A DNA stretch of 47,647 bases from Patescibacteria group bacterium (GCA_038057055.1 JBBUDY010000002.1:1-47647), one strand, 5' to 3'; shown: positions 1,472-47,647, numbered from the stretch's first letter. Numbers and translations: made by a program. The notes: generated by a model not told the origin, from the sequence alone.

Positions 1472-3004
1472 ATGCCTATTGCAGTGCACAAGAAAGGATA
1501 CGCAAAGACGTTTGCTGCGCAGCCGATTGGTTCAGCGGCAGAACTGGTAAGCGTCGAGGCTGATCTTACGCGCGGACTCCACGCGTTCTCTGTCGTTGGT
1601 CTCGCTGATAAAGCGGTTGGGGAGGCGCGCGACCGGGTGAGTGCGGCGATACGGCATTCCGGCATCAAGCCGCCAAAACAACAGAACAAACGCATTATCC
1701 TCTCGCTCTCGCCGGCAGACCTGAAAAAAGAAGGTTCGCATTATGACCTCGCGCTTGCGCTTGCATATCTAATTGCCGCAGATGAACTCGCTCCTTTCAC
1801 CACTGAAATGCTCTTTTCTGGAGAGCTTGCACTCGACGGCACGCTCCGGAGCGTGCGCGGAGTGCTCCCGCAGGTGCTCGCCGCGAAACGCCGCGGCATC
1901 ACCACGATTTTCATTCCACCCGGGAATGCGCGCGAGGCGCTTCTCGCTGGGGGTGTCACGGTCTATGCGCCAAAGACGCTTGCAGAGCTGTTGCAACACT
2001 TGAAGGGCGAGAAACCGCTCCCGCGCCTCGTGCGCGATCGGCAGACACCAGTGCCGCCGCCTTCGCTCGACTTGCGAGATGTAAAAGGGCAGGAGAGCGC
2101 GAAGCGCGCGCTCGAAATTGCTGCTGCAGGTCGTCACAACATCGTCTTCTACGGACCGCCGGGGACAGGGAAGACGATGCTCGCGCGAGCGCTCGCAGGC
2201 ATCCTCCCGCCGCTCACGGATGACGATATGCTCGAGGTAACTGCGATACATTCAACTGCGGGGCTGCTCAAAGAAGGAGAGGCGATGCACTGGCCGCCCT
2301 TTCGTTCGCCACACCACTCTATATCGCACGTGGCGATCGTGGGTGGTGGCGCATTCCCGAAGGCGGGCGAAGTCACGCTCGCGCACAAGGGAGTGCTTTT
2401 TCTCGATGAGTTTCCTGAATTTGATTCGCGAACACTCGAGGCACTTCGACAGCCGCTTGAAGATCGCGTGGTTACCGTTTCGCGAGCACGGGCGAGCGTC
2501 ACCTTCCCCGCTGACTGCATGATAGTTGCGGCGATGAATCCGGCGAGCACGCTCTCCGAGGATTCCCGCGTGGCGATGCGGGCGGCAGAGAAACAGTCGC
2601 GCCGTATCTCGCGGCCCATCGTTGACCGCCTCGACCTCTGGATAGAAGTGCCGCTTGTCCCGCATGACACGCTCGCGAAATTGAGTACTGGCGAGCCGTC
2701 AGAGAAGGTGCGCGAGCGTGTGGTCGCGGCGCGCGTGCGGGCCGCGAAGCGCACCGGAAAAAGAAATGCGACCAATGCCGCGCTCACCGGCCGCGAGCTT
2801 GATGAGAAAAGTGGCTTCACCACTGCGGCAAAAGAGACGCTTACACAATCTGCTGTCCGACTCAACCTTTCACCGCGCAGCTACCACCGCACGATGCGCG
2901 TCGCGCGCACCATCGCCGACCTTGCCGGTGCGGACACCGTTACCCCCGCATATGTCCACGAAGCACTCCAATACCGCCCGCGCGGCCTATTCGGGTTTGA
3001 ATAA
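1472..3004 (+). CDS. comM: ComM/YifB Mg-chelatase-like AAA+ ATPase
   Basis: [15 protein letters not shown], Walker [55 protein letters not shown]. Confidence 0.93.
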
Positions 3005-18993: not shown

Positions 18994-21141
18994 ATGAACA
19001 GAGACTATCCGCTCGAGAAGGTTCGCAATTTTGGCATCATCGCGCACATCGACGCGGGGAAGACGACTACGTCTGAACGCATCCTTTTCTATACCGGCAG
19101 TCAACACAAGATCGGTGAGGTGCACGAGGGCGAGACCACGACCGACTGGATGGAGCAGGAGCGCGAGCGTGGTATCACCATCACCGCTGCTGCCATCACC
19201 TGTTTCTGGACCAAGACAAATGAGAAAGATAAGAAAGATACGTCCAAGAAATATCGTTTCAATATCATCGACACCCCCGGACACATCGACTTCACCGCCG
19301 AGGTGAAGCGCTCGATGCGCGTCCTTGACGGCGCGATCGTCGTCTTCGACGGCGTCGCGGGCGTCGAGCCGCAAAGCGAGACCAACTGGCGTTATGCTGA
19401 CGAAGCTGCGGTGCCGCGTGTCTGTTTCATCAACAAGCTCGATCGCACGGGTGCGTCATTTGAGAGTTCCTATGCGAGCATCCTCGATCGACTCTCACCG
19501 AAGGCAATCCGTATGCAGATTCCTATCGGTGAAGAGGGAGCACATGAGGGCTGCGTCGACCTGCTCACGATGAAGGCATATACCTTCTCGGGGAACATGG
19601 GTGAAGAGGTGATCGAGGGCGAGATCCCGGCGAATCTGCTTGAAGACGCGAAGAAATATCGTGCGGCTCTCGTTGAGCGTATCGTCGAGCAAGACGACAC
19701 AGCAATGGGCGCGTATCTCGAAGGCACGGAGCCGAGTCTCGACGAATTGAAAGCGATTTTGCGTAAGGCAGTTATCAATAATGAAATTTTCCCGGTCTAC
19801 ACCGGCTCGGCGCTCAAGAACAAAGGCGTCCAGCTCGTGCTTGATGCCGTCGTCGACTACCTCCCATCCCCGCTCGATCTCAAACCAGCTACCGGCATAA
19901 ATCCTAAGACCGGCGAGCCAATTGAACGTCATGCAGCAGACGATGAGCCATTTTGTGCGCTTGCATTCAAACTCCAGACCGACCCATTCGTGGGCGCCCT
20001 CACCTTTTTCCGCGTGTATTCAGGCACGCTCACTGCCGGCTCGTATGTCTATAATTCGAGCACTAGCACGAAGGAGCGTATCAGTCGCATTGTTCGACTT
20101 CAGGCCGACAAGCGCGAGGAGGTTGAGAAAGTATTCACCGGTGAAATTGCTGCCGCGGTCGGCCTCAAAGATACCAAGACCTCACACACGCTCTGTGACG
20201 AAGCGAATCCGATTATGCTCGAGGAGATTAAGTTCCCCGAGCCAGTGGTGAGTCTCCGCATCGAGCCTAAGACCAAAGCCGACCAGGAGAAGATGGGTAT
20301 GGCGCTCCGCAAACTCTCTGACGAAGACCCGACGTTCCGCATTAAGACCGATGATGAGACCGGCGAGACTATCATCTCTGGTATGGGTGAATTGCATTTG
20401 GAAATTCTCGTTGACCGTATGAAGCGCGAATTCAATGTACTCGCTGATGTCGGCAAGCCACAAGTGGCGTATCGCGAGACGATTCTCGGAAGTGCAGAAG
20501 CAGAAGGAAAGTACATCAAGCAGACGGGTGGTCGCGGTCAGTATGGTCACGTGAAGATCCGTATGAAAAAGATGGAGCCAGTCGACCCGGACAAGAAGGT
20601 TTCAAAGAACGTCACGCGCGAAGATCATTTCGAATTCATCAACAACATCAAGGGCGGTGTCGTCCCCCAGGAATTTATCGCGCCGGTAGAAAAGGGAATT
20701 CGCGAGGCGATGGTACGCGGCTTTCTCGCTGGCTTCCCGATGGTCGACATTTCGGTTGACCTCTACGACGGCTCGTATCACGACGTGGACTCCTCCGAAA
20801 TCGCCTTCAAGATTGCAGCGTCAATGGCGTTTCAAGAAGCCGCGGGCAAGGCAAAGGCGGTTATCCTTGAGCCGATCATGCGCATCGAGGTCATCGTGCC
20901 AGAACAGTTCATGGGTGACATCACGGGCAATATCTCCGGCAAGCGCGGACAGATCGAGGGGATGGATGAGCGCGGTTTGAGCAAAGTCGTGCGCGCTAAA
21001 GTCCCGCTCTCTGAAATGTTCGGCTACACCACCACGCTCCGCAGTATGACCGAAGGTCGCGGCTCAATGACAATGGAATTCGACCACTACGACACCGTCC
21101 CCAACAACATCGCGGTGGATATTATCGCGAGTCGCAAATAG
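18994..21141 (+). CDS. fusA: Elongation factor G
   Basis: [37 protein letters not shown]. Confidence 0.98.
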
Positions 21142-21160
21142 TTTTTACTTCAGAAAATAG

Positions 21161-21189
21161 CAACGGCGAACCTTTCGGTTCGCCGCTTG
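21161..21189. terminator. Hairpin terminator after fusA
   Basis: GGCGAACC-TTTC-GGTTCGCC. Confidence 0.7.
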
Positions 21190-21207
21190 TGCCTTGAAGG
21201 GCTCGTT

Positions 21208-21633
21208 TTACTTCTTCTTACGCCCCAACGCAACACAGAAGTGCTGTTGCGTCCATCCCGTGTTCTTCGGGAAGTGTTTAAGCGCGGTCACCGCACCGAG
21301 CTCCGAAGCGCGGGCCATCGATGGAGCAGAAACCGCGGCAGTGGAGATGTACACCTGGCGTTTTCTCACGGCGATCATACCGACGCCGTACATTGAATTG
21401 GACCGAAATCCCTTGTCTTTTCGACGCAGAGCCTCGGCCGCCTTTTCCCATGAGAGATGGTTTGTGAAATGCTCAACCCATCCATCTTCGGGAGGGAAAA
21501 CTTCTTTGGCCCGGTTGAGTGCGACAGACGCGATTTGCTGCCCGTGATTTTCCTCAACGAAAGAAACGTCAAGCTCTATCCGGCGGTTACCCTTGATTCC
21601 GTTGAAGGCAGCAATACAGACTATGTACTCCAT
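21208..21633 (-). CDS. Hypothetical protein with two internal repeats
   Basis: SD-like GAGGTGGAG. The repeats end FPPEDGWVEHF and FPKNTGWTQQHF. Confidence 0.65.
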   Translation of the reverse strand: MEYIVCIAAFNGIKGNRRIELDVSFVEENHGQQIASVALNRAKEVFPPEDGWVEHFTNHLSWEKAAEALRRKDKGFRSNSMYGVGMIAVRKRQVYISTAAVSAPSMARASELGAVTALKHFPKNTGWTQQHFCVALGRKKK

Positions 21634-43911: not shown

Positions 43912-44259
43912 TTAAACAACTTGCTTGGCAATGCGAGCAAAAATTTCAGGATGGTCGGAGGCGAATTGGGCGAGGACCTTGCGGTCGAGGGCGAAGCCGG
44001 TTTTCTTGAGCTTCGCGATGAAGGTGGAGTAGGACTTGTGGCCATTCTCGCGGACGGCGGCGTTGAGGCGGACTATCCAGAGTTGGCGGAAGTCAGTCTT
44101 CTTGTCGCGGCGGTGAGCAAACGCGTAGCGGCCTGCACGCATGAGCGCCTCGTGAGCGGCGTGGAGCTTCTTGGAGCGGATGCCACGATAGCCCTTAGCT
44201 CTCTCGAGAATATTCTTGCGGCGCTTATTCGCCATTACTCCTCCCTTGATTCTTGTCAT
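43912..44259 (-). CDS. rplT: 50S ribosomal protein L20
   Basis: AKGYRG, FRQLWIVRLNAA, LDRKVLA. Confidence 0.97.
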   Translation of the reverse strand: MTRIKGGVMANKRRKNILERAKGYRGIRSKKLHAAHEALMRAGRYAFAHRRDKKTDFRQLWIVRLNAAVRENGHKSYSTFIAKLKKTGFALDRKVLAQFASDHPEIFARIAKQVV

Positions 44260-44282
44260 ACGAAAATGATTACTACAATTAA

Positions 44283-44477
44283 TTACTTCGCCCCAGTTGC
44301 TGGCAAGAAGCGGCGGCGAACTTTCATCGACAAATTGATAGCCACGGAACCGCGTTTGCCGCGGCGCTCGCCGCCGCTCTGCTTGGCGTTGAAATGGTTC
44401 TGACCTTTTACACGCGCCATCAACTTCCCGTTGCGAGTGACGCGGATTCTTTTTGAATATGATTTATTTGTTTTCAT
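44283..44477 (-). CDS. rpmI: 50S ribosomal protein L35
   Basis: MKTNKSYSKRIRVTRNGK..GQNHFNAK, between infC and rplT. Confidence 0.92.
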   Translation of the reverse strand: MKTNKSYSKRIRVTRNGKLMARVKGQNHFNAKQSGGERRGKRGSVAINLSMKVRRRFLPATGAK

Positions 44478-45030
44478 TTTTTGGTTTTTGTTCCTTCTCG
44501 CGCTTCGCTTGGGCGATGAGGTCGCGCTCAATAACTCCCGCAAAGCCCTTTGGGCTCCGCGCGACCGGCTCGGCGACCTTGTAGGCATACGGGATGCGTA
44601 CAAGGAACTTCTCGAGACGATCTTTGAGGAATGCTTCCTCCATACTCTTGTAGCGGCCTTTGAGGAAGAGCTCGGCGCGCACACGGTGACCCTCGGAGAG
44701 CCACTCGGCGGCCTTCTTTGCCTTGAGCTCCATATCATGGTCCCCGGTGCCCACCTTGATCTGGACCTCCTTGGTTTCTGATACTTTTACCTTGGCTTTT
44801 GCTACCTTTTCCTTCTTGCTACGCTCGTATTCAAATTTACCATAATCTATGATTTTCGCAATTGGCGGGACGGCTGAGGGCGATATCTCGATAAGGTCGA
44901 GCCCCGCCTGCTTTGCCGCCGCAAGTGCCGCCTCGAGCGAGAGGATACCCAGATTGCTCCCGTCTGCACTAATCACGCGCAACTCTTGCGCGCGTATCTC
45001 GTTATTAATGCGAAGTCGTTCAGTGGCCAC
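44464..45030 (-). CDS. infC: Translation initiation factor IF-3
   Basis: RINNEIRA.ELRVI, DLIEISP.A.PP.AKIIDYGKF. Confidence 0.95.
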   Translation of the reverse strand: MATERLRINNEIRAQELRVISADGSNLGILSLEAALAAAKQAGLDLIEISPSAVPPIAKIIDYGKFEYERSKKEKVAKAKVKVSETKEVQIKVGTGDHDMELKAKKAAEWLSEGHRVRAELFLKGRYKSMEEAFLKDRLEKFLVRIPYAYKVAEPVARSPKGFAGVIERDLIAQAKREKEQKPKNENK

Positions 45031-45088
45031 TGGAAGTAGCTAGAATATAGCATAAAAAATGGGTAGGGTGCAAGGTATAATTTGGAAC

Positions 45089-45286
45089 ATGAAAATCCCA
45101 CCAGACCCGCGCACCCCATATATTCTCGACAAGGAACAAGACCAACGGATTTTCGCAAAGTTGGGACGATTTCAGAAACGGAAACTTACGAGCGAAGAAG
45201 AAAAACTTGTGGCGTTTCTGTACTCTCAGCTGGAAACAGACTGGCGAACTCCGCTCGAGGAATTTACAGACGATTTACTTCGTTAA
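45089..45286 (+). CDS. Hypothetical 65-aa protein
   Basis: Leaderless start 7 nt after TATAAT; SQLETDWRTPL. Confidence 0.65.
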   Translation: MKIPPDPRTPYILDKEQDQRIFAKLGRFQKRKLTSEEEKLVAFLYSQLETDWRTPLEEFTDDLLR

Positions 45287-45324
45287 AATCTGGCTCGGGT
45301 CGGAGAGGATGATTTCGACTTTGT
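45275..45324 (-). repeat. Second copy of the PLD-OB gene 3' end
   Basis: 32/35 nt match between 45290-45324 and 45884-45918. KVEIILSDPSQILTK* versus KAEIILSDPSQLSK*. Confidence 0.9.
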
Positions 45325-45364
45325 ACACAAGCTTGCTTGCTGGATAAAAGAGGGTATAATGGCA

Positions 45365-45458
45365 ATGTGCTCGTGAAGCGCAAGCTTTATTCGGCTAACG
45401 GAATTCCATACGCCGAAAGCGGGCACATCAAAGCAACCGTCATCTCGACGGTTTTTTT
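45365..45458 (+). ncRNA. Candidate small structured RNA (three-way junction plus terminator)
   Basis: Promoter TTGCTT-16-TATAAT (45333-45360). Stems ATGTGCTCG/CGGGCACAT, TGAAGC-GCAA-GCTTTA and TTCGGC/GCCGAA. Terminator AACCGTC/GACGGTT plus T run. Confidence 0.6.
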
Positions 45459-45853
45459 GTTTTCTTATTTTCCTTTTTCCACACGCTCAAGAAGGTTATA
45501 TTTCCGTCGCCAATTCTTCTCAAGACGACCGACACTAGAGCCTTCTGTTTCCCAACCACTTCTTTCAACTCCCATATTTCGTAATACTTTCCAAGCGGTT
45601 TTGAGTACTGCTCTTTTTTGTAGTCAGCAACGCTTGTTGCCAGCTGAATAACTGGAATAACAAGCGGTAGTAGACCGATCTTATATTTCTGTTCGCTCAG
45701 TTCCCTACGCTTGCCATGACTATCGTATCGTAAATGATAGAAGCCTTTTGAATTAAAAACGACATATTGATTTAAAATCGGACAATAGACTTTCTCAACG
45801 GTTTTATACCATGCTCTTTTTTCTTCAATAAAGTTAGAAAAGCTCTGCGCCAT
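45440..45853 (-). CDS. Putative BECR/RelE-like fold RNase
   Basis: VVFNSKGFYHL...R...EQ..., C-terminal beta meander VSVVLRR.GDG..TFLSV. Fold is inferred from motif pattern. AT-rich and leaderless. Confidence 0.6.
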   Translation of the reverse strand: MAQSFSNFIEEKRAWYKTVEKVYCPILNQYVVFNSKGFYHLRYDSHGKRRELSEQKYKIGLLPLVIPVIQLATSVADYKKEQYSKPLGKYYEIWELKEVVGKQKALVSVVLRRIGDGNITFLSVWKKENKKTKKPSR

Positions 45854-45871
45854 ACAGGAGATTGTATAACG

Positions 45872-46792
45872 TTATTTCGAGAGCTGACTCGGGTCGGAGA
45901 GAATGATTTCGGCTTTGTTTTGGTAGGAGGCGATTTTGCCGGTGAGGGTGATGGTTTGCCCCGCGTAGCGGGAGAGGTCGCCGAATTTTTCTGCATCATC
46001 GGCGAAGATGACGCCAGAGAAGGGACAGGTTTTGTATTGCTTACAGAAATCGAGAAAGACCGTGCCGGTTTTTGAGGTATAGGCTTCAACGAGTTTCCCG
46101 CGCACGGAGGCGTACTCGCCGACGTGATTCATGGCTTCTGTATAGTCGATGGTGCCGATAGAAACTGGCGCGGCCGCTCCCGCGGCCGCGCTGTTGCCTT
46201 TGTAGGCATCGAGCAATTTCTTCAAAATATTTTCATATGCTTGTCGGAGTGCGGGGTCGGTGCCGACTTCAAGTATTTCGTCATTGATGGTTGTCGCAGA
46301 CTTAGTCCAGTTGTAGCTGCCAAATGCATAGGCCTGCTCTGTCACGAGAAGTTTAATGTGCATAATGCCATTGCCGGTCGCGTGTTTCTCGGTCACGACT
46401 GGGATGCCGGCGGCGAGCAATTTTGCAGTAATCGGAGCACCATAACTATTACTGCTTTGTTCTGAATCCATAATTCCTTTTACTTCGACACCACGCTTCT
46501 TTGCTTCTACAAGCGCATCGGCGATGCTCGGAAGGGTAAAGGTATATATCGCAAAATAGACGTACTCCTCTGCTTCATTGATGAGCGCGATGAGCTCTTG
46601 GTCGTTCTGCCTCTTGTCGAGGCTATAAATAACACGTATTGAGTTTGCGGTCGGCGCCGAAACGGTTTGCACCGGAATAGCGACGCTTGGGGCTTGTCCC
46701 GCCGCGTCACCAGTCCCAATCGTGTACCCCGCGCCGCCCGCTGCAAGGGCGAAGATAAGGGCTGTAATCGCACGGATGATTCTCGGATTCAT
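45872..46792 (-). CDS. Secreted PLD/Nuc-family nuclease with C-terminal OB-fold
   Basis: Signal/TM segment, AIYTFT, MHIKLLVTE..GSYNWT (HKD-like), then an OB-like VRGKLV..GTVFLDF..GQTITLTGKI..Y..KAEI. Confidence 0.8.
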   Translation of the reverse strand: MNPRIIRAITALIFALAAGGAGYTIGTGDAAGQAPSVAIPVQTVSAPTANSIRVIYSLDKRQNDQELIALINEAEEYVYFAIYTFTLPSIADALVEAKKRGVEVKGIMDSEQSSNSYGAPITAKLLAAGIPVVTEKHATGNGIMHIKLLVTEQAYAFGSYNWTKSATTINDEILEVGTDPALRQAYENILKKLLDAYKGNSAAAGAAAPVSIGTIDYTEAMNHVGEYASVRGKLVEAYTSKTGTVFLDFCKQYKTCPFSGVIFADDAEKFGDLSRYAGQTITLTGKIASYQNKAEIILSDPSQLSK

Positions 46793-46846
46793 CTCGTTAG
46801 TATACCCACAAAAGCACTCGAGACACTAGCTAATCATACGGTGTAG

Positions 46847-47452
46847 CTATTCGCCTCGATTGGATGCTTCGAGCTCTTCCTTCTTAGCGCGATATGCAAG
46901 CAGATTATGTCTCCCGATGAAGAACAGAGCAATGAGGAACGCTCCAGCGATACCCCAGCGGACGTGACCGACCCACCCGGACGTGATACTGCCGAACCAG
47001 TACGATACTGAAAAAAGTCCTACCCCCACGAGCAATCCTCCGGTAAATGCCATAGGGAGATACGTGCGAAACGGGAGATGGAAGAAGCCGCTCGCAGCAA
47101 AAGTAGTGAATCGTAATCCGGGTATGAAATGGCCGGAAAAGACTTTTACTGCATACTTATGTTCAAGCCAAGAACGAAAAGGTGCCGTGAAGTCATGGTC
47201 GATATAGTGTGCAAGCCTCGGATGTGTGCGAGCAAATGAACCAAGAGCGTAGAGTGCAGTGTCTCCAATCATCATGCCGGTATAGAGCGATATGAGTGCA
47301 AGCGGAATCGATACAGTCCCATCTGCCGCAAGTACACCGACGATAACTATAGTAAGGTCTTCGAGAAAGAGGACGCAGAGAATAATTGCGAGCGCAAGGA
47401 CTACAGAGCTATCAACGGTGCCGCCGATGAGGTGAGAGAGAAAGACATCCAT
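46847..47452 (-). CDS. DedA/VTT family membrane protein
   Basis: LEDLTIV..G, GDTALYALG, FIPGLRF...ASG. Confidence 0.85.
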   Translation of the reverse strand: MDVFLSHLIGGTVDSSVVLALAIILCVLFLEDLTIVIVGVLAADGTVSIPLALISLYTGMMIGDTALYALGSFARTHPRLAHYIDHDFTAPFRSWLEHKYAVKVFSGHFIPGLRFTTFAASGFFHLPFRTYLPMAFTGGLLVGVGLFSVSYWFGSITSGWVGHVRWGIAGAFLIALFFIGRHNLLAYRAKKEELEASNRGE

Positions 47453-47647
47453 ATGAGTCTTCAGTCTAGCAGGTTTCTTTATGCACAGAACCATTCCTGA
47501 CCCCCGCTTTTTGTCGCAGATGAGAGTATCATACCTAGAGTATGAAAACACCCACGACCATTTTCGGTGTCATCCTGTTGCTACTTGGACTCCAGCACCC
47601 TCGCCCCTCAAAGTCCCCACCCTGCTTGCGTTAGCGAATAATAACTC

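Follow-up and report, generated by a model that had tools for sequence, protein, structure and literature searches.

The window, that is, the whole stretch of 47,647 nt that was analyzed, comes from a Patescibacteria group bacterium (GCA_038057055.1, JBBUDY010000002.1:1-47647) and contains a short insert between infC and the gene of a secreted PLD-type nuclease (Table 1). The 3' end of the PLD gene is present twice at this place, as a 35-nt direct repeat of which the two copies are 91% identical, and the remnant that includes the left copy would still read ...KVEIILSDPSQILTK*. The 559 nt between the repeats hold only a 137-aa ORF on the minus strand and, on the plus strand, a promoter-like element with a unit of ~92 nt; no second ORF was found inside this cassette and no tRNA or tmRNA in the window. 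The features described in the initial annotation (the ORF, the RNA fold and the terminator over the stop codon) were all located where it had placed them. It had also described a cargo of 0.55 kb, which is right in that two items lie between the repeats, but the segment that proved strain-specific measures 826 nt and additionally includes a 75-aa ORF and the PLD-end remnant.

Table 1. Positions of the genes, repeats and RNA elements at the locus, counted from the first letter of the window
Feature	Position	Strand	Remarks
infC	44464-45030	-	IF3 domains
Strain-specific segment, 826 nt	45053-45878		75-aa ORF, PLD-end remnant, sRNA, 137-aa gene
75-aa ORF	45059-45286	+	inside the 826-nt strain-specific segment
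Left direct repeat	45290-45324	-	within 45275-45324, where a remnant of the 3' end of the PLD gene forms a second copy
sRNA promoter	45333-45360	+	TTGCTT (45333-45338), 16-nt spacer, TATAAT (45355-45360)
RNA, three-way junction and terminator, ~92 nt	45367-45458	+	convergent to the 137-aa gene
sRNA core, three-way junction	45367-45426	+	folding, covariation
P1 helix	45367-45374 with 45419-45426	+	compensatory changes in 7/8 pairs
P2 helix	45375-45379 with 45384-45388	+	GCAA loop 45380-45383; compensatory changes in 4/5 pairs
P3 helix	45391-45395 with 45412-45416	+	16-nt loop 45396-45411, UAACGGAAUUCCAUAC
Intrinsic terminator of sRNA	45435-45458	+	stem 45435-45453 and T run; compensatory changes in 9/11 pairs
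137-aa protein gene	45440-45853	-	basic stand-alone LPD3-domain protein; predicted BECR/RelE-like fold
-10-like TACAAT of the protein gene	45861-45866	-	ends 7 nt before the ATG
PLD gene (secreted PLD-type nuclease)	45872-46792	-	PF13091
Right direct repeat	45884-45918	-	3' end of the intact PLD gene, in frame

From the promoter and the terminator present in the DNA, we infer that the ~92-nt RNA is transcribed. Among the public runs, no RNA run was listed that contains the stretch. The promoter had been described as strong, and its -10 box is indeed perfect and set at a 16-nt spacing, but the -35 box matches the consensus at only three of six positions, and the promoter scan of the window did not call it. 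When the promoters of 21 loci were aligned, most of the relatives were found to have TTGAC(A/T) at the corresponding -35 place. The gene of the 137-aa protein has no Shine-Dalgarno sequence, and the identical layout was observed in L003, L004, L007, L010 and L018; its mRNA is plausibly leaderless, with the TACAAT element as its promoter.

The region at 45362-45460 folds at -39.8 kcal/mol (z = -5.65), a value that none of 200 shuffles equaled, and the elements follow one another in the order of a closing stem, the hairpin capped by the GCAA tetraloop, the hairpin with the loop of 16 nt and the terminator. Within the loop of P3, there is a 2-bp extension (G45400-G45401 / C45406-C45407). The evolutionary support for this fold was evaluated in 62 distinct sequences, the alignment of which was fitted to a covariance model and hence favors the structure: 97.6% of the cells pair, compared with 85.1% in shuffles, 23 of the 30 pairs show compensatory changes with both sides altered, and the covariation score is 0.427, compared with 0.190 in shuffles, none of the observed measures being reached by any of 500 shuffles. 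As a control, the 3' partners were slid by 1-3 columns, resulting in a pairing of only 39-50%. Furthermore, an independent MAFFT/RNAalifold analysis of 21 sequences yielded identical helices, with 19 of 28 pairs compensated. Many of the pairs are G-U pairs, which would be left unpaired on the other strand, so the fold is specific to the strand that bears the promoter. Thus, the RNA structure is real and strand-specific, as supported by the covariation. The conserved unpaired positions are those in the GNRA loop of P2, at the junction of P2 and P3 and in the internal loop of P3 (UAA...AUA). A cmscan of 44000-47647 against Rfam 15 at E <= 10 indicated no family for the RNA, the only match being one to a snoRNA, by chance and elsewhere, and the three-way-junction RNA represents a new, well-supported family of structured RNAs that is absent from Rfam. 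A kissing dimer formed via a palindrome in the P3 loop (GGAAUUCC, CCAAUUGG and GCAAUUGC) was also considered and was dropped, because the hairpin at that place in L041 is non-palindromic and a short hairpin extension therefore accounts for the palindromes.

The initial annotation had proposed that the 3' flanks of homologs be tested for a covarying RNA, and such an RNA was found there. It is present in convergent orientation in all of the 97 complete homolog loci, which consist of 19 in genomes (19/19) and 78 that are uncut in metagenomes (78/78). In the 19 genome loci, the opposite strand just 3' of the gene carries the aligned -35/-10 promoter, the three-way junction and the terminator. A covariance model built from these 19 loci and the two cassette copies of the window genome, which has exactly two, recognized 78 of 80 metagenome loci as carrying the RNA, in each case in convergent orientation and abutting on the gene, with E values of 3e-10 to 6e-21; in the two metagenome loci with no RNA match (L026 and L079), the contig ends at the gene. 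An all-versus-all comparison of the flanking ORFs of 124 loci indicated no third conserved gene, the only other recurrent ORF family beside the cassette being a shadow ORF that is read from the strand opposite the gene. These results, together with the variety of genomic contexts described below, bear out the earlier suggestion that an RNase-like protein and an RNA move as a unit, and they support the view that the protein and the RNA form a fixed pair.

The association was also examined beyond close relatives. Of 401 genomes of the phylum to which a profile search was applied, 30 contain the protein family (30 of 320 genera). Among 29 of these loci, mostly of distant members, 18 have a convergent RNA at E <= 0.01, at -11 to +79 nt from the protein match, four have a weak RNA match at the expected place and seven have none there; the rule that the protein never occurs without the RNA holds for close relatives only. 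A search that started from the RNA, in 151 genomes of the phylum, detected it in eight, at protein loci save for one weak match (G186). The loci were mostly gathered via the protein, so orphan RNAs are under-sampled.

Among 82 distinct RNA-bearing regions, the protein gene is intact in 75, broken or truncated in five and absent in two. Three of the broken copies are clear, all of them second copies: that of the window genome, on contig C29, which encodes 88 aa and has lost the C-terminal half while the promoter of the RNA is intact; that in L016, which is split into 77 and 69 aa; and that in L021, which is N-terminally truncated. The genes in L094 and L020 are ambiguous, and the two regions that have no gene are upstream copies in L005 and L012, the only loci with an extra upstream, same-strand copy of the RNA. 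The converse, an intact protein gene without the RNA, was found in none of the 97 complete loci. This asymmetry, in which the RNA is kept and the protein lost, fits what is expected of a toxin and its antidote, in a sample that is biased. It is also in line with an alternative that involves no toxin at all, in which the LPD3 protein would form a stable ribonucleoprotein with the small RNA and serve specifically to bind, chaperone or process it, and the RNA or the complex would do the work, for instance, that of a regulator, decoy or sensor. The strict co-occurrence and the covariation are equally expected of such a particle, an RNA that outlives a broken or absent protein gene may serve on its own, and the conserved unpaired nucleotides of P3 (UAA...AUA) are typical of a protein-binding site. 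We consider this alternative unlikely on balance, for reasons that lie in the protein and in the mobility of the cassette and are given with them below.

The arrangement of the two genes may, on the other hand, call to mind an antisense system of type I character, in which the small RNA would pair with the mRNA, either where the two overlap at the 3' end or in the start region, and thereby cause decay or a block of translation. The terminator covers the stop codon of the 137-aa gene (45440-45442), and ~30 nt of it, fully complementary, are common to the two convergent genes, 19 nt of these being coding; Bacillus is known to have type I pairs whose genes converge and overlap at the 3' ends. However, the overlap consists only of a bidirectional terminator, as is found at many convergent gene pairs, and an A-rich stretch upstream of the sRNA terminator allows it to end the convergent mRNA too. 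In addition, the conserved covarying part (P1-P3) lies outside the overlap, and the duplexes predicted between the sRNA core and the mRNA 5' region are no better for cognate combinations (-15.47 kcal/mol) than for non-cognate ones (-15.44 kcal/mol; p = 0.45, 66 distinct pairs). The protein, moreover, is soluble, basic and 137 aa long, not a small membrane peptide. These features, namely, the basic soluble protein, the confinement of the overlap to the terminator and the lack of cognate pairing with the mRNA 5' region, set the cassette apart from type I TA systems, which have a small hydrophobic toxin peptide and an antisense RNA directed against its mRNA. Thus, antisense action is highly unlikely, and the initial judgment that favored protein binding over it, on the grounds of the short overlap, agrees with our analysis, in which the overlap is a shared terminator.

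The 137-aa protein, which has a pI of 9.83, had been regarded as an orphan. It has 139 relatives in clusters at 90% identity, which are 50-94% identical to it, and 524 representative clusters match it at E <= 1e-3, so it is not an orphan in this sense, but the part of the claim that concerned a protein antitoxin stands: there is no adjacent antitoxin gene of the type II RelE/ParE kind and no conserved neighbor among the 124 loci. The few relatives with a source name almost all carry the label of a Patescibacteria group. Searches of Pfam, PADLOC, PHROGs and NCBIfam with the window protein yielded nothing useful, the sole match, in NCBIfam at E 0.022, being far below the cut-off, and no sequence profile links it to any toxin family. 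Searches of PDB sequences with the single protein or with a profile, and of phage records and plasmids by tblastn, gave no match, and no relative was confirmed in viral contigs by using two peptide patterns. The ESM Atlas returned only its own unnamed clusters, in one of which LPD3 is assigned to 15% of the members.

The link to a named family was provided by the relatives. Of 107 divergent representatives of the family, 39 match LPD3 (PF18798) at E <= 0.01, and none matches anything else; P0059 does so with an E value of 2.3e-6 and a score of 28.2 bits (cut-off, 27), and P0071 with an E value of 4.6e-5. The window protein itself has no match to PF18798 at E <= 1. Its structure was predicted by AlphaFold (AF2) from 28 sequences, with a pLDDT of 91.6, and the model consists of helices followed by a four-strand meander. 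When it was compared with BFVD by Foldseek, seven of the rows at ranks 1-15 (six proteins) were named LPD3, with probabilities of 0.96-1.00, TM scores (query) of 0.50-0.58 and E values of 1.7e-3 to 5.4e-2, and two further rows were named large polyvalent protein-associated domain. The top matches are phage polyvalent proteins named LPD3, with a probability of 1.00 and TM scores of 0.50-0.62. The modeled protein thus shares its fold with LPD3 domains, and by transitive evidence of sequence and by the fold, the window protein is most probably a member of LPD3.

The fold had been described at first as BECR/RelE-like. This description may stand at the level of the fold, in that the best matches in the PDB are RNase toxins, but the similarity is weak. 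Foldseek indicated nothing in the PDB at E <= 0.001, with a complex of a CdiA-CT toxin as the best match (E 0.036). In a wide structure search of the PDB that was independent of Foldseek, 12 of the top 35 rows are, according to the entry titles, RNase toxins of the BECR type, including a Salmonella TA toxin (Z 5.2), BrnT (4.5), colicin D (4.0), MqsR (3.7), CdiA-CT chains (4.8 and 3.8) and colicin E5, RegB, YoeB and RelE1 (3.1-3.5), so that all the BECR matches are in the range of Z 3.1-5.2, where, by the yardstick of the search tool, a Z below 8 may reflect only a common arrangement. The assignment to a BECR/RelE-type fold is therefore a consistent lead short of proof.

The pattern of conservation is suggestive of an enzyme. 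Across the 107 representatives, the mean column identity of which is 25%, Gly37, Arg50 and Ser123 are invariant and His40 is conserved in at least 90%. In the AF2 model, His40 is located just after a short N-terminal helix and Ser123 in the last strand of the four-strand meander. BECR RNases have been described to share an active-site pattern of a His within the N-terminal helix together with a Ser/Thr in strand 4 (PMC5512222), and the modeled positions of His40 and Ser123 would fit this pattern. Arg50 and Ser123 are kept invariant, and His40 nearly so, across such divergent members, which points to catalysis rather than binding alone and makes His40, Arg50 and Ser123 candidate catalytic residues. 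This argues against a stable ribonucleoprotein in which the protein only attends to the RNA, although an inactive PBECR domain has been suggested to act probably by RNA binding (PMC5512222), which would suit that alternative.

The genomic position of the cassette varies. It is located between tuf and rpsJ in L010, L013, L042 and others, adjoins NusG in L023, where the protein is 93% identical to that of the window, and lies beside the PLD gene in the window, L024-L026 and L079; proteins 92-93% identical to that of the window occur in different contexts. On a contig titled as Bacteroidetes, it is found among genes for an NYN nuclease, an N6 methylase, DUF6602 and a serine recombinase. An orthologue of the PLD gene is present in 17 of 24 genomes of the same genus, and in the 11 loci of the genus that were examined, no cassette RNA was detected beside this gene at E < 0.01, with the PLD gene running directly into infC in L105, L106, L107, L112 and L115. 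In three public runs from three studies, there are contigs in which 45052 is joined to 45879, with 35 other letters replacing the 826 nt, and the depth of this cassette-free form is ~4-fold that of the cassette-bearing form in two runs and approximately equal to it in the third. The presence of such contigs beside the cassette form indicates that a related cassette-free strain occurs in the same water. Hence, the mobility that had been suggested for this site is supported by the lack of the cassette in the same-genus genomes examined and in a co-occurring strain, and the cassette is accessory and mobile. A patchy distribution, mobility and a protein gene that has decayed repeatedly are traits that characterize selfish or defense cassettes more than the stable ribonucleoprotein considered above.

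With respect to the means of this mobility, 18 of 89 loci (12 distinct) have the cassette between imperfect direct repeats, which are 21 to >257 nt long and 87-99% identical; in L086, a whole gene of ~105 codons is present on each side. Another genome of the genus has a different cargo at this PLD end, 537 bp long and with a 104-aa coiled-coil ORF, which is enclosed by similar repeats. A synonymous bias in the flanking repeats was considered as proof of two donor alleles, an argument that is weakened by L086, where both copies are complete ORFs and possibly under selection. One may suppose that the structured element acts at the DNA level, as a transposon end or recognition site, and that the protein is the transposase or nuclease that belongs to it, similar to the situation in IS200/IS605. 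The small size and mobility of the unit, the length of the protein (~135 aa) and the flanking direct repeats would be compatible with this, as would the arrangement in L005 and L012, where two inverted copies of the element surround the gene. However, the element is bordered by a sigma-70 promoter and a Rho-independent terminator, both of them conserved, and is present as a single copy per unit in 75 or more loci, and the protein matches neither the Y1/HUH nor any other transposase family. IS200/IS605 elements, which have structured DNA at both of their ends, differ from the cassette in these very respects, as it has one element per unit, with promoter and terminator, and no Y1 HUH transposase. 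The long, imperfect repeats of variable length are unlike the target duplications made by transposases, and similar repeats surround a different cargo at the same PLD end, as mentioned above. A role as a transposon end is thus most improbable. The flanking repeats presumably resemble the outcome of insertion-duplication by a single homologous crossover. The cassette appears to be spread by host recombination that leaves long imperfect target duplications; the duplications were observed, and the mechanism is what we infer from them.

Taken together, the data suggest a horizontally moving, self-contained, two-part cassette of Patescibacteria, for which we propose a function as an RNA-neutralized RNase toxin that is type III-like in logic and outside any known family, a proposal to which we give about an even chance. 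The solo LPD3 protein is predicted to be a metal-independent endoribonuclease that would be harmful when free. The ~60-nt three-way-junction RNA, which would be transcribed on the opposite strand from a sigma-70-type promoter of its own and end at the shared terminator, would be abundant, bind the protein directly and thereby keep it inactive. The RNase might then be set free if the cassette were lost or if transcription in the host were blocked, for example, by a phage. The cassette encodes no recombinase, and host recombination would be what spreads it. The RNA has a consensus promoter in the relatives, and the protein gene appears to be leaderless with a -10 box only; this predicted asymmetry of expression would fit an antitoxin in excess.

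The proposed logic is that of the type III TA systems (ToxIN, CptIN, TenpIN and AbiQ), in which an RNase toxin is bound by an adjacent abundant RNA in a compact mobile unit. In those systems, the antitoxin RNA is a tandem array of short direct repeats located upstream of the toxin on the same strand, with a terminator between them. The RNA of the present cassette, in contrast, is a single three-way-junction unit with its own promoter, and it is convergent and downstream in all of the 97 complete loci. An analysis of 44900-46300 by TRF indicated no tandem array except a CGCGGC run inside the PLD gene. Neither Pfam nor PADLOC matched the window protein to ToxN, AbiQ, CptN or TenpN, and the 107 relatives match only LPD3. 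The idea that a structured, non-repeat ncRNA neutralizes an RNase-type toxin is shared with AbiF (Abi_2, HEPN-type) and its ncRNA; in the case of AbiF/RCd22 of C. difficile, the neutralization by direct contact has been described (bioRxiv 10.1101/2025.04.15.648962). However, the window protein has no Abi_2 match, its RNA, for which Rfam yielded no match at E <= 10, belongs to an unrelated motif, and the layout is convergent. Membership in ToxIN/AbiQ or AbiF is thus ruled out by the lack of a repeat RNA, of a same-strand operon and of a match to ToxN or Abi_2.

The BECR-fold RNase toxins (BrnT, MqsR, YoeB, colicin D/E5, CdiA-CT and RegB), which are the best structural matches at Z 3.1-5.2, resemble the modeled protein in being small and basic. 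Their core, an N-terminal helix and then a four- or five-stranded sheet, may correspond to the helices and the four-strand meander of the model, and their His...Ser/Thr pattern to its conserved residues. The cassette differs from those of the BECR/RelE toxins in that there is no match of sequence profiles and that a conserved RNA is present where an antitoxin or immunity gene would be. LPD3 is known from polyvalent proteins, as part of which it is injected by phages and conjugative elements, whereas in the present case, it stands alone on Patescibacteria chromosomes, with a dedicated RNA partner. The text of PMC5512222 lists it only as a companion of PBECR RNase domains in prophage proteins of Helicobacter, with a function that is unknown, and assigns no RNA partner to it. 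Similarly, in the open-access literature searched, neither an RNA partner for LPD3 nor an RNA-neutralized toxin of the BECR type is described. The RNA-protein pairing is probably new for the LPD3 protein family, and the cassette represents a new context for LPD3 and, most likely, a variant of the RNA-antitoxin systems that is new as well.

A more comprehensive reading, which we regard as distinctly unlikely in its entirety, is that LPD3 is an overlooked branch of BECR-type RNases, the solo members of which are governed by a structured RNA dedicated to them. The present protein would then be the first RNA-neutralized toxin with a RelE/colicin-like fold. The RNA might act as a mimic, with the 7-8-bp closing helix and the conserved A/C-rich 3' tail resembling a target RNA, such as the acceptor end of tRNA, and its turnover would provide the trigger. 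Free of any recombinase, the cassette would be spread by insertion-duplication through homologous recombination of the host and be retained by addiction.

If the proposed function as an RNA-neutralized toxin is true, the cassette would provide the first functional handle on LPD3. The few RNA-neutralized toxins, a group reported to have given rise to Cas13-type effectors (bioRxiv 10.1101/2025.04.15.648962), would gain a member with a toxin fold and an RNA architecture that are new among them. It would also mean that even Patescibacteria, with genomes of ~0.8 Mb, possess selfish or defensive cassettes of RNA and protein and exchange them, by what appears to be host recombination alone. The pair comprises only ~560 nt, which makes it easy to synthesize and to test in a laboratory host.

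Small cassettes appear to insert repeatedly at the 3' end of the PLD gene (PF13091 nuclease), because a different insert of 537 bp was found at the same PLD 3' end in a genome of the same genus (G023), where it was enclosed by ~47–70-nt repeats of the PLD end that were ~91% identical. We also compared the window with the contigs of the co-occurring strain that is free of the cassette, the convergent pair of the LPD3-domain protein gene and the three-way-junction sRNA gene. On the infC side (window 44800–45052), these contigs showed 23 letter differences to the window over 228–253 nt, whereas the PLD side (window 45879–46197) showed only 6 such differences across 319 nt. With the divergence on the infC side being far greater, a recombination boundary seems, judging from the sequences, to be located at the insert.

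Long imperfect direct repeats, ranging in length from 21 to >257 nt, were present on both sides of the cassette at 12 distinct loci, including L086, L055, L056, L043, L019, L005, L016, L034, L063, and L064. The two repeat copies in L086 differed at 9 positions in 257 nt, of which 8 were synonymous and one was a Val/Leu replacement. The flanking repeats may have originated through insertion-duplication by host recombination; alternatively, a duplication may have occurred first, with selection then acting on each copy.

Coordinates of features in the window and at compared loci
Feature	Position	Strand	Description
75-aa ORF	window 45059–45286	+	within 826-nt strain-specific segment
GC-rich palindrome	window 46166–46193		within PLD coding region
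Repeats in L086	L086:1145–1470 and 2025–2350		whole ~105-codon membrane-protein gene on each side of cassette
Insert in G023	L108:2334–2942		104-aa coiled-coil ORF on opposite strand; GC-rich structured stretch
Second, decayed cassette copy in the window's genome (G000)	contig C29 ~21070–21430 (L002:1176–1565)		between RelA/SpoT-like gene and topA
Paired cassettes	L016:3001–5101		one contig
HTH_17 gene and RNA variant	L012:2563–2974		same strand

In the second cassette copy in the window's genome, the RNA was complete with its promoter (80.4 bits), and the protein was shortened to 88 aa. Two cassettes were also observed 1.6 kb apart in L016, with a Bro-N domain gene between them and a stop codon splitting the protein gene of the second. 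At two loci, L012 and L020, a gene for a 97-aa HTH_17 (excisionase-like) protein was followed, in the same orientation, by an RNA variant with a short P3, the hairpin that carries the 16-nt loop in the window's sRNA. This extra RNA lies directly upstream of an intact cassette in L012, so that two RNA genes in inverted orientation bracket the protein gene.

The 75-aa ORF had no match in Pfam, NCBIfam, PADLOC, or PHROG and no relatives among all loci collected for the cassette comparison; its 3' codons overlap the PLD-end remnant. The palindrome in the PLD gene, composed of CGCGGC repeats, was marked as terminator-like in both orientations. This sequence codes for an Ala/Gly-rich linker and probably does not act as a terminator.

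A cassette whose protein was 72% identical was observed in a 504-kb contig (L008) titled Bacteroidetes, neighboring NYN+OST-HTH, N6 DNA methylase, DUF6602, and large serine recombinase genes. It may represent cross-phylum transfer in which a mobile or defence island received the cassette, the phylum being that of the record title only.
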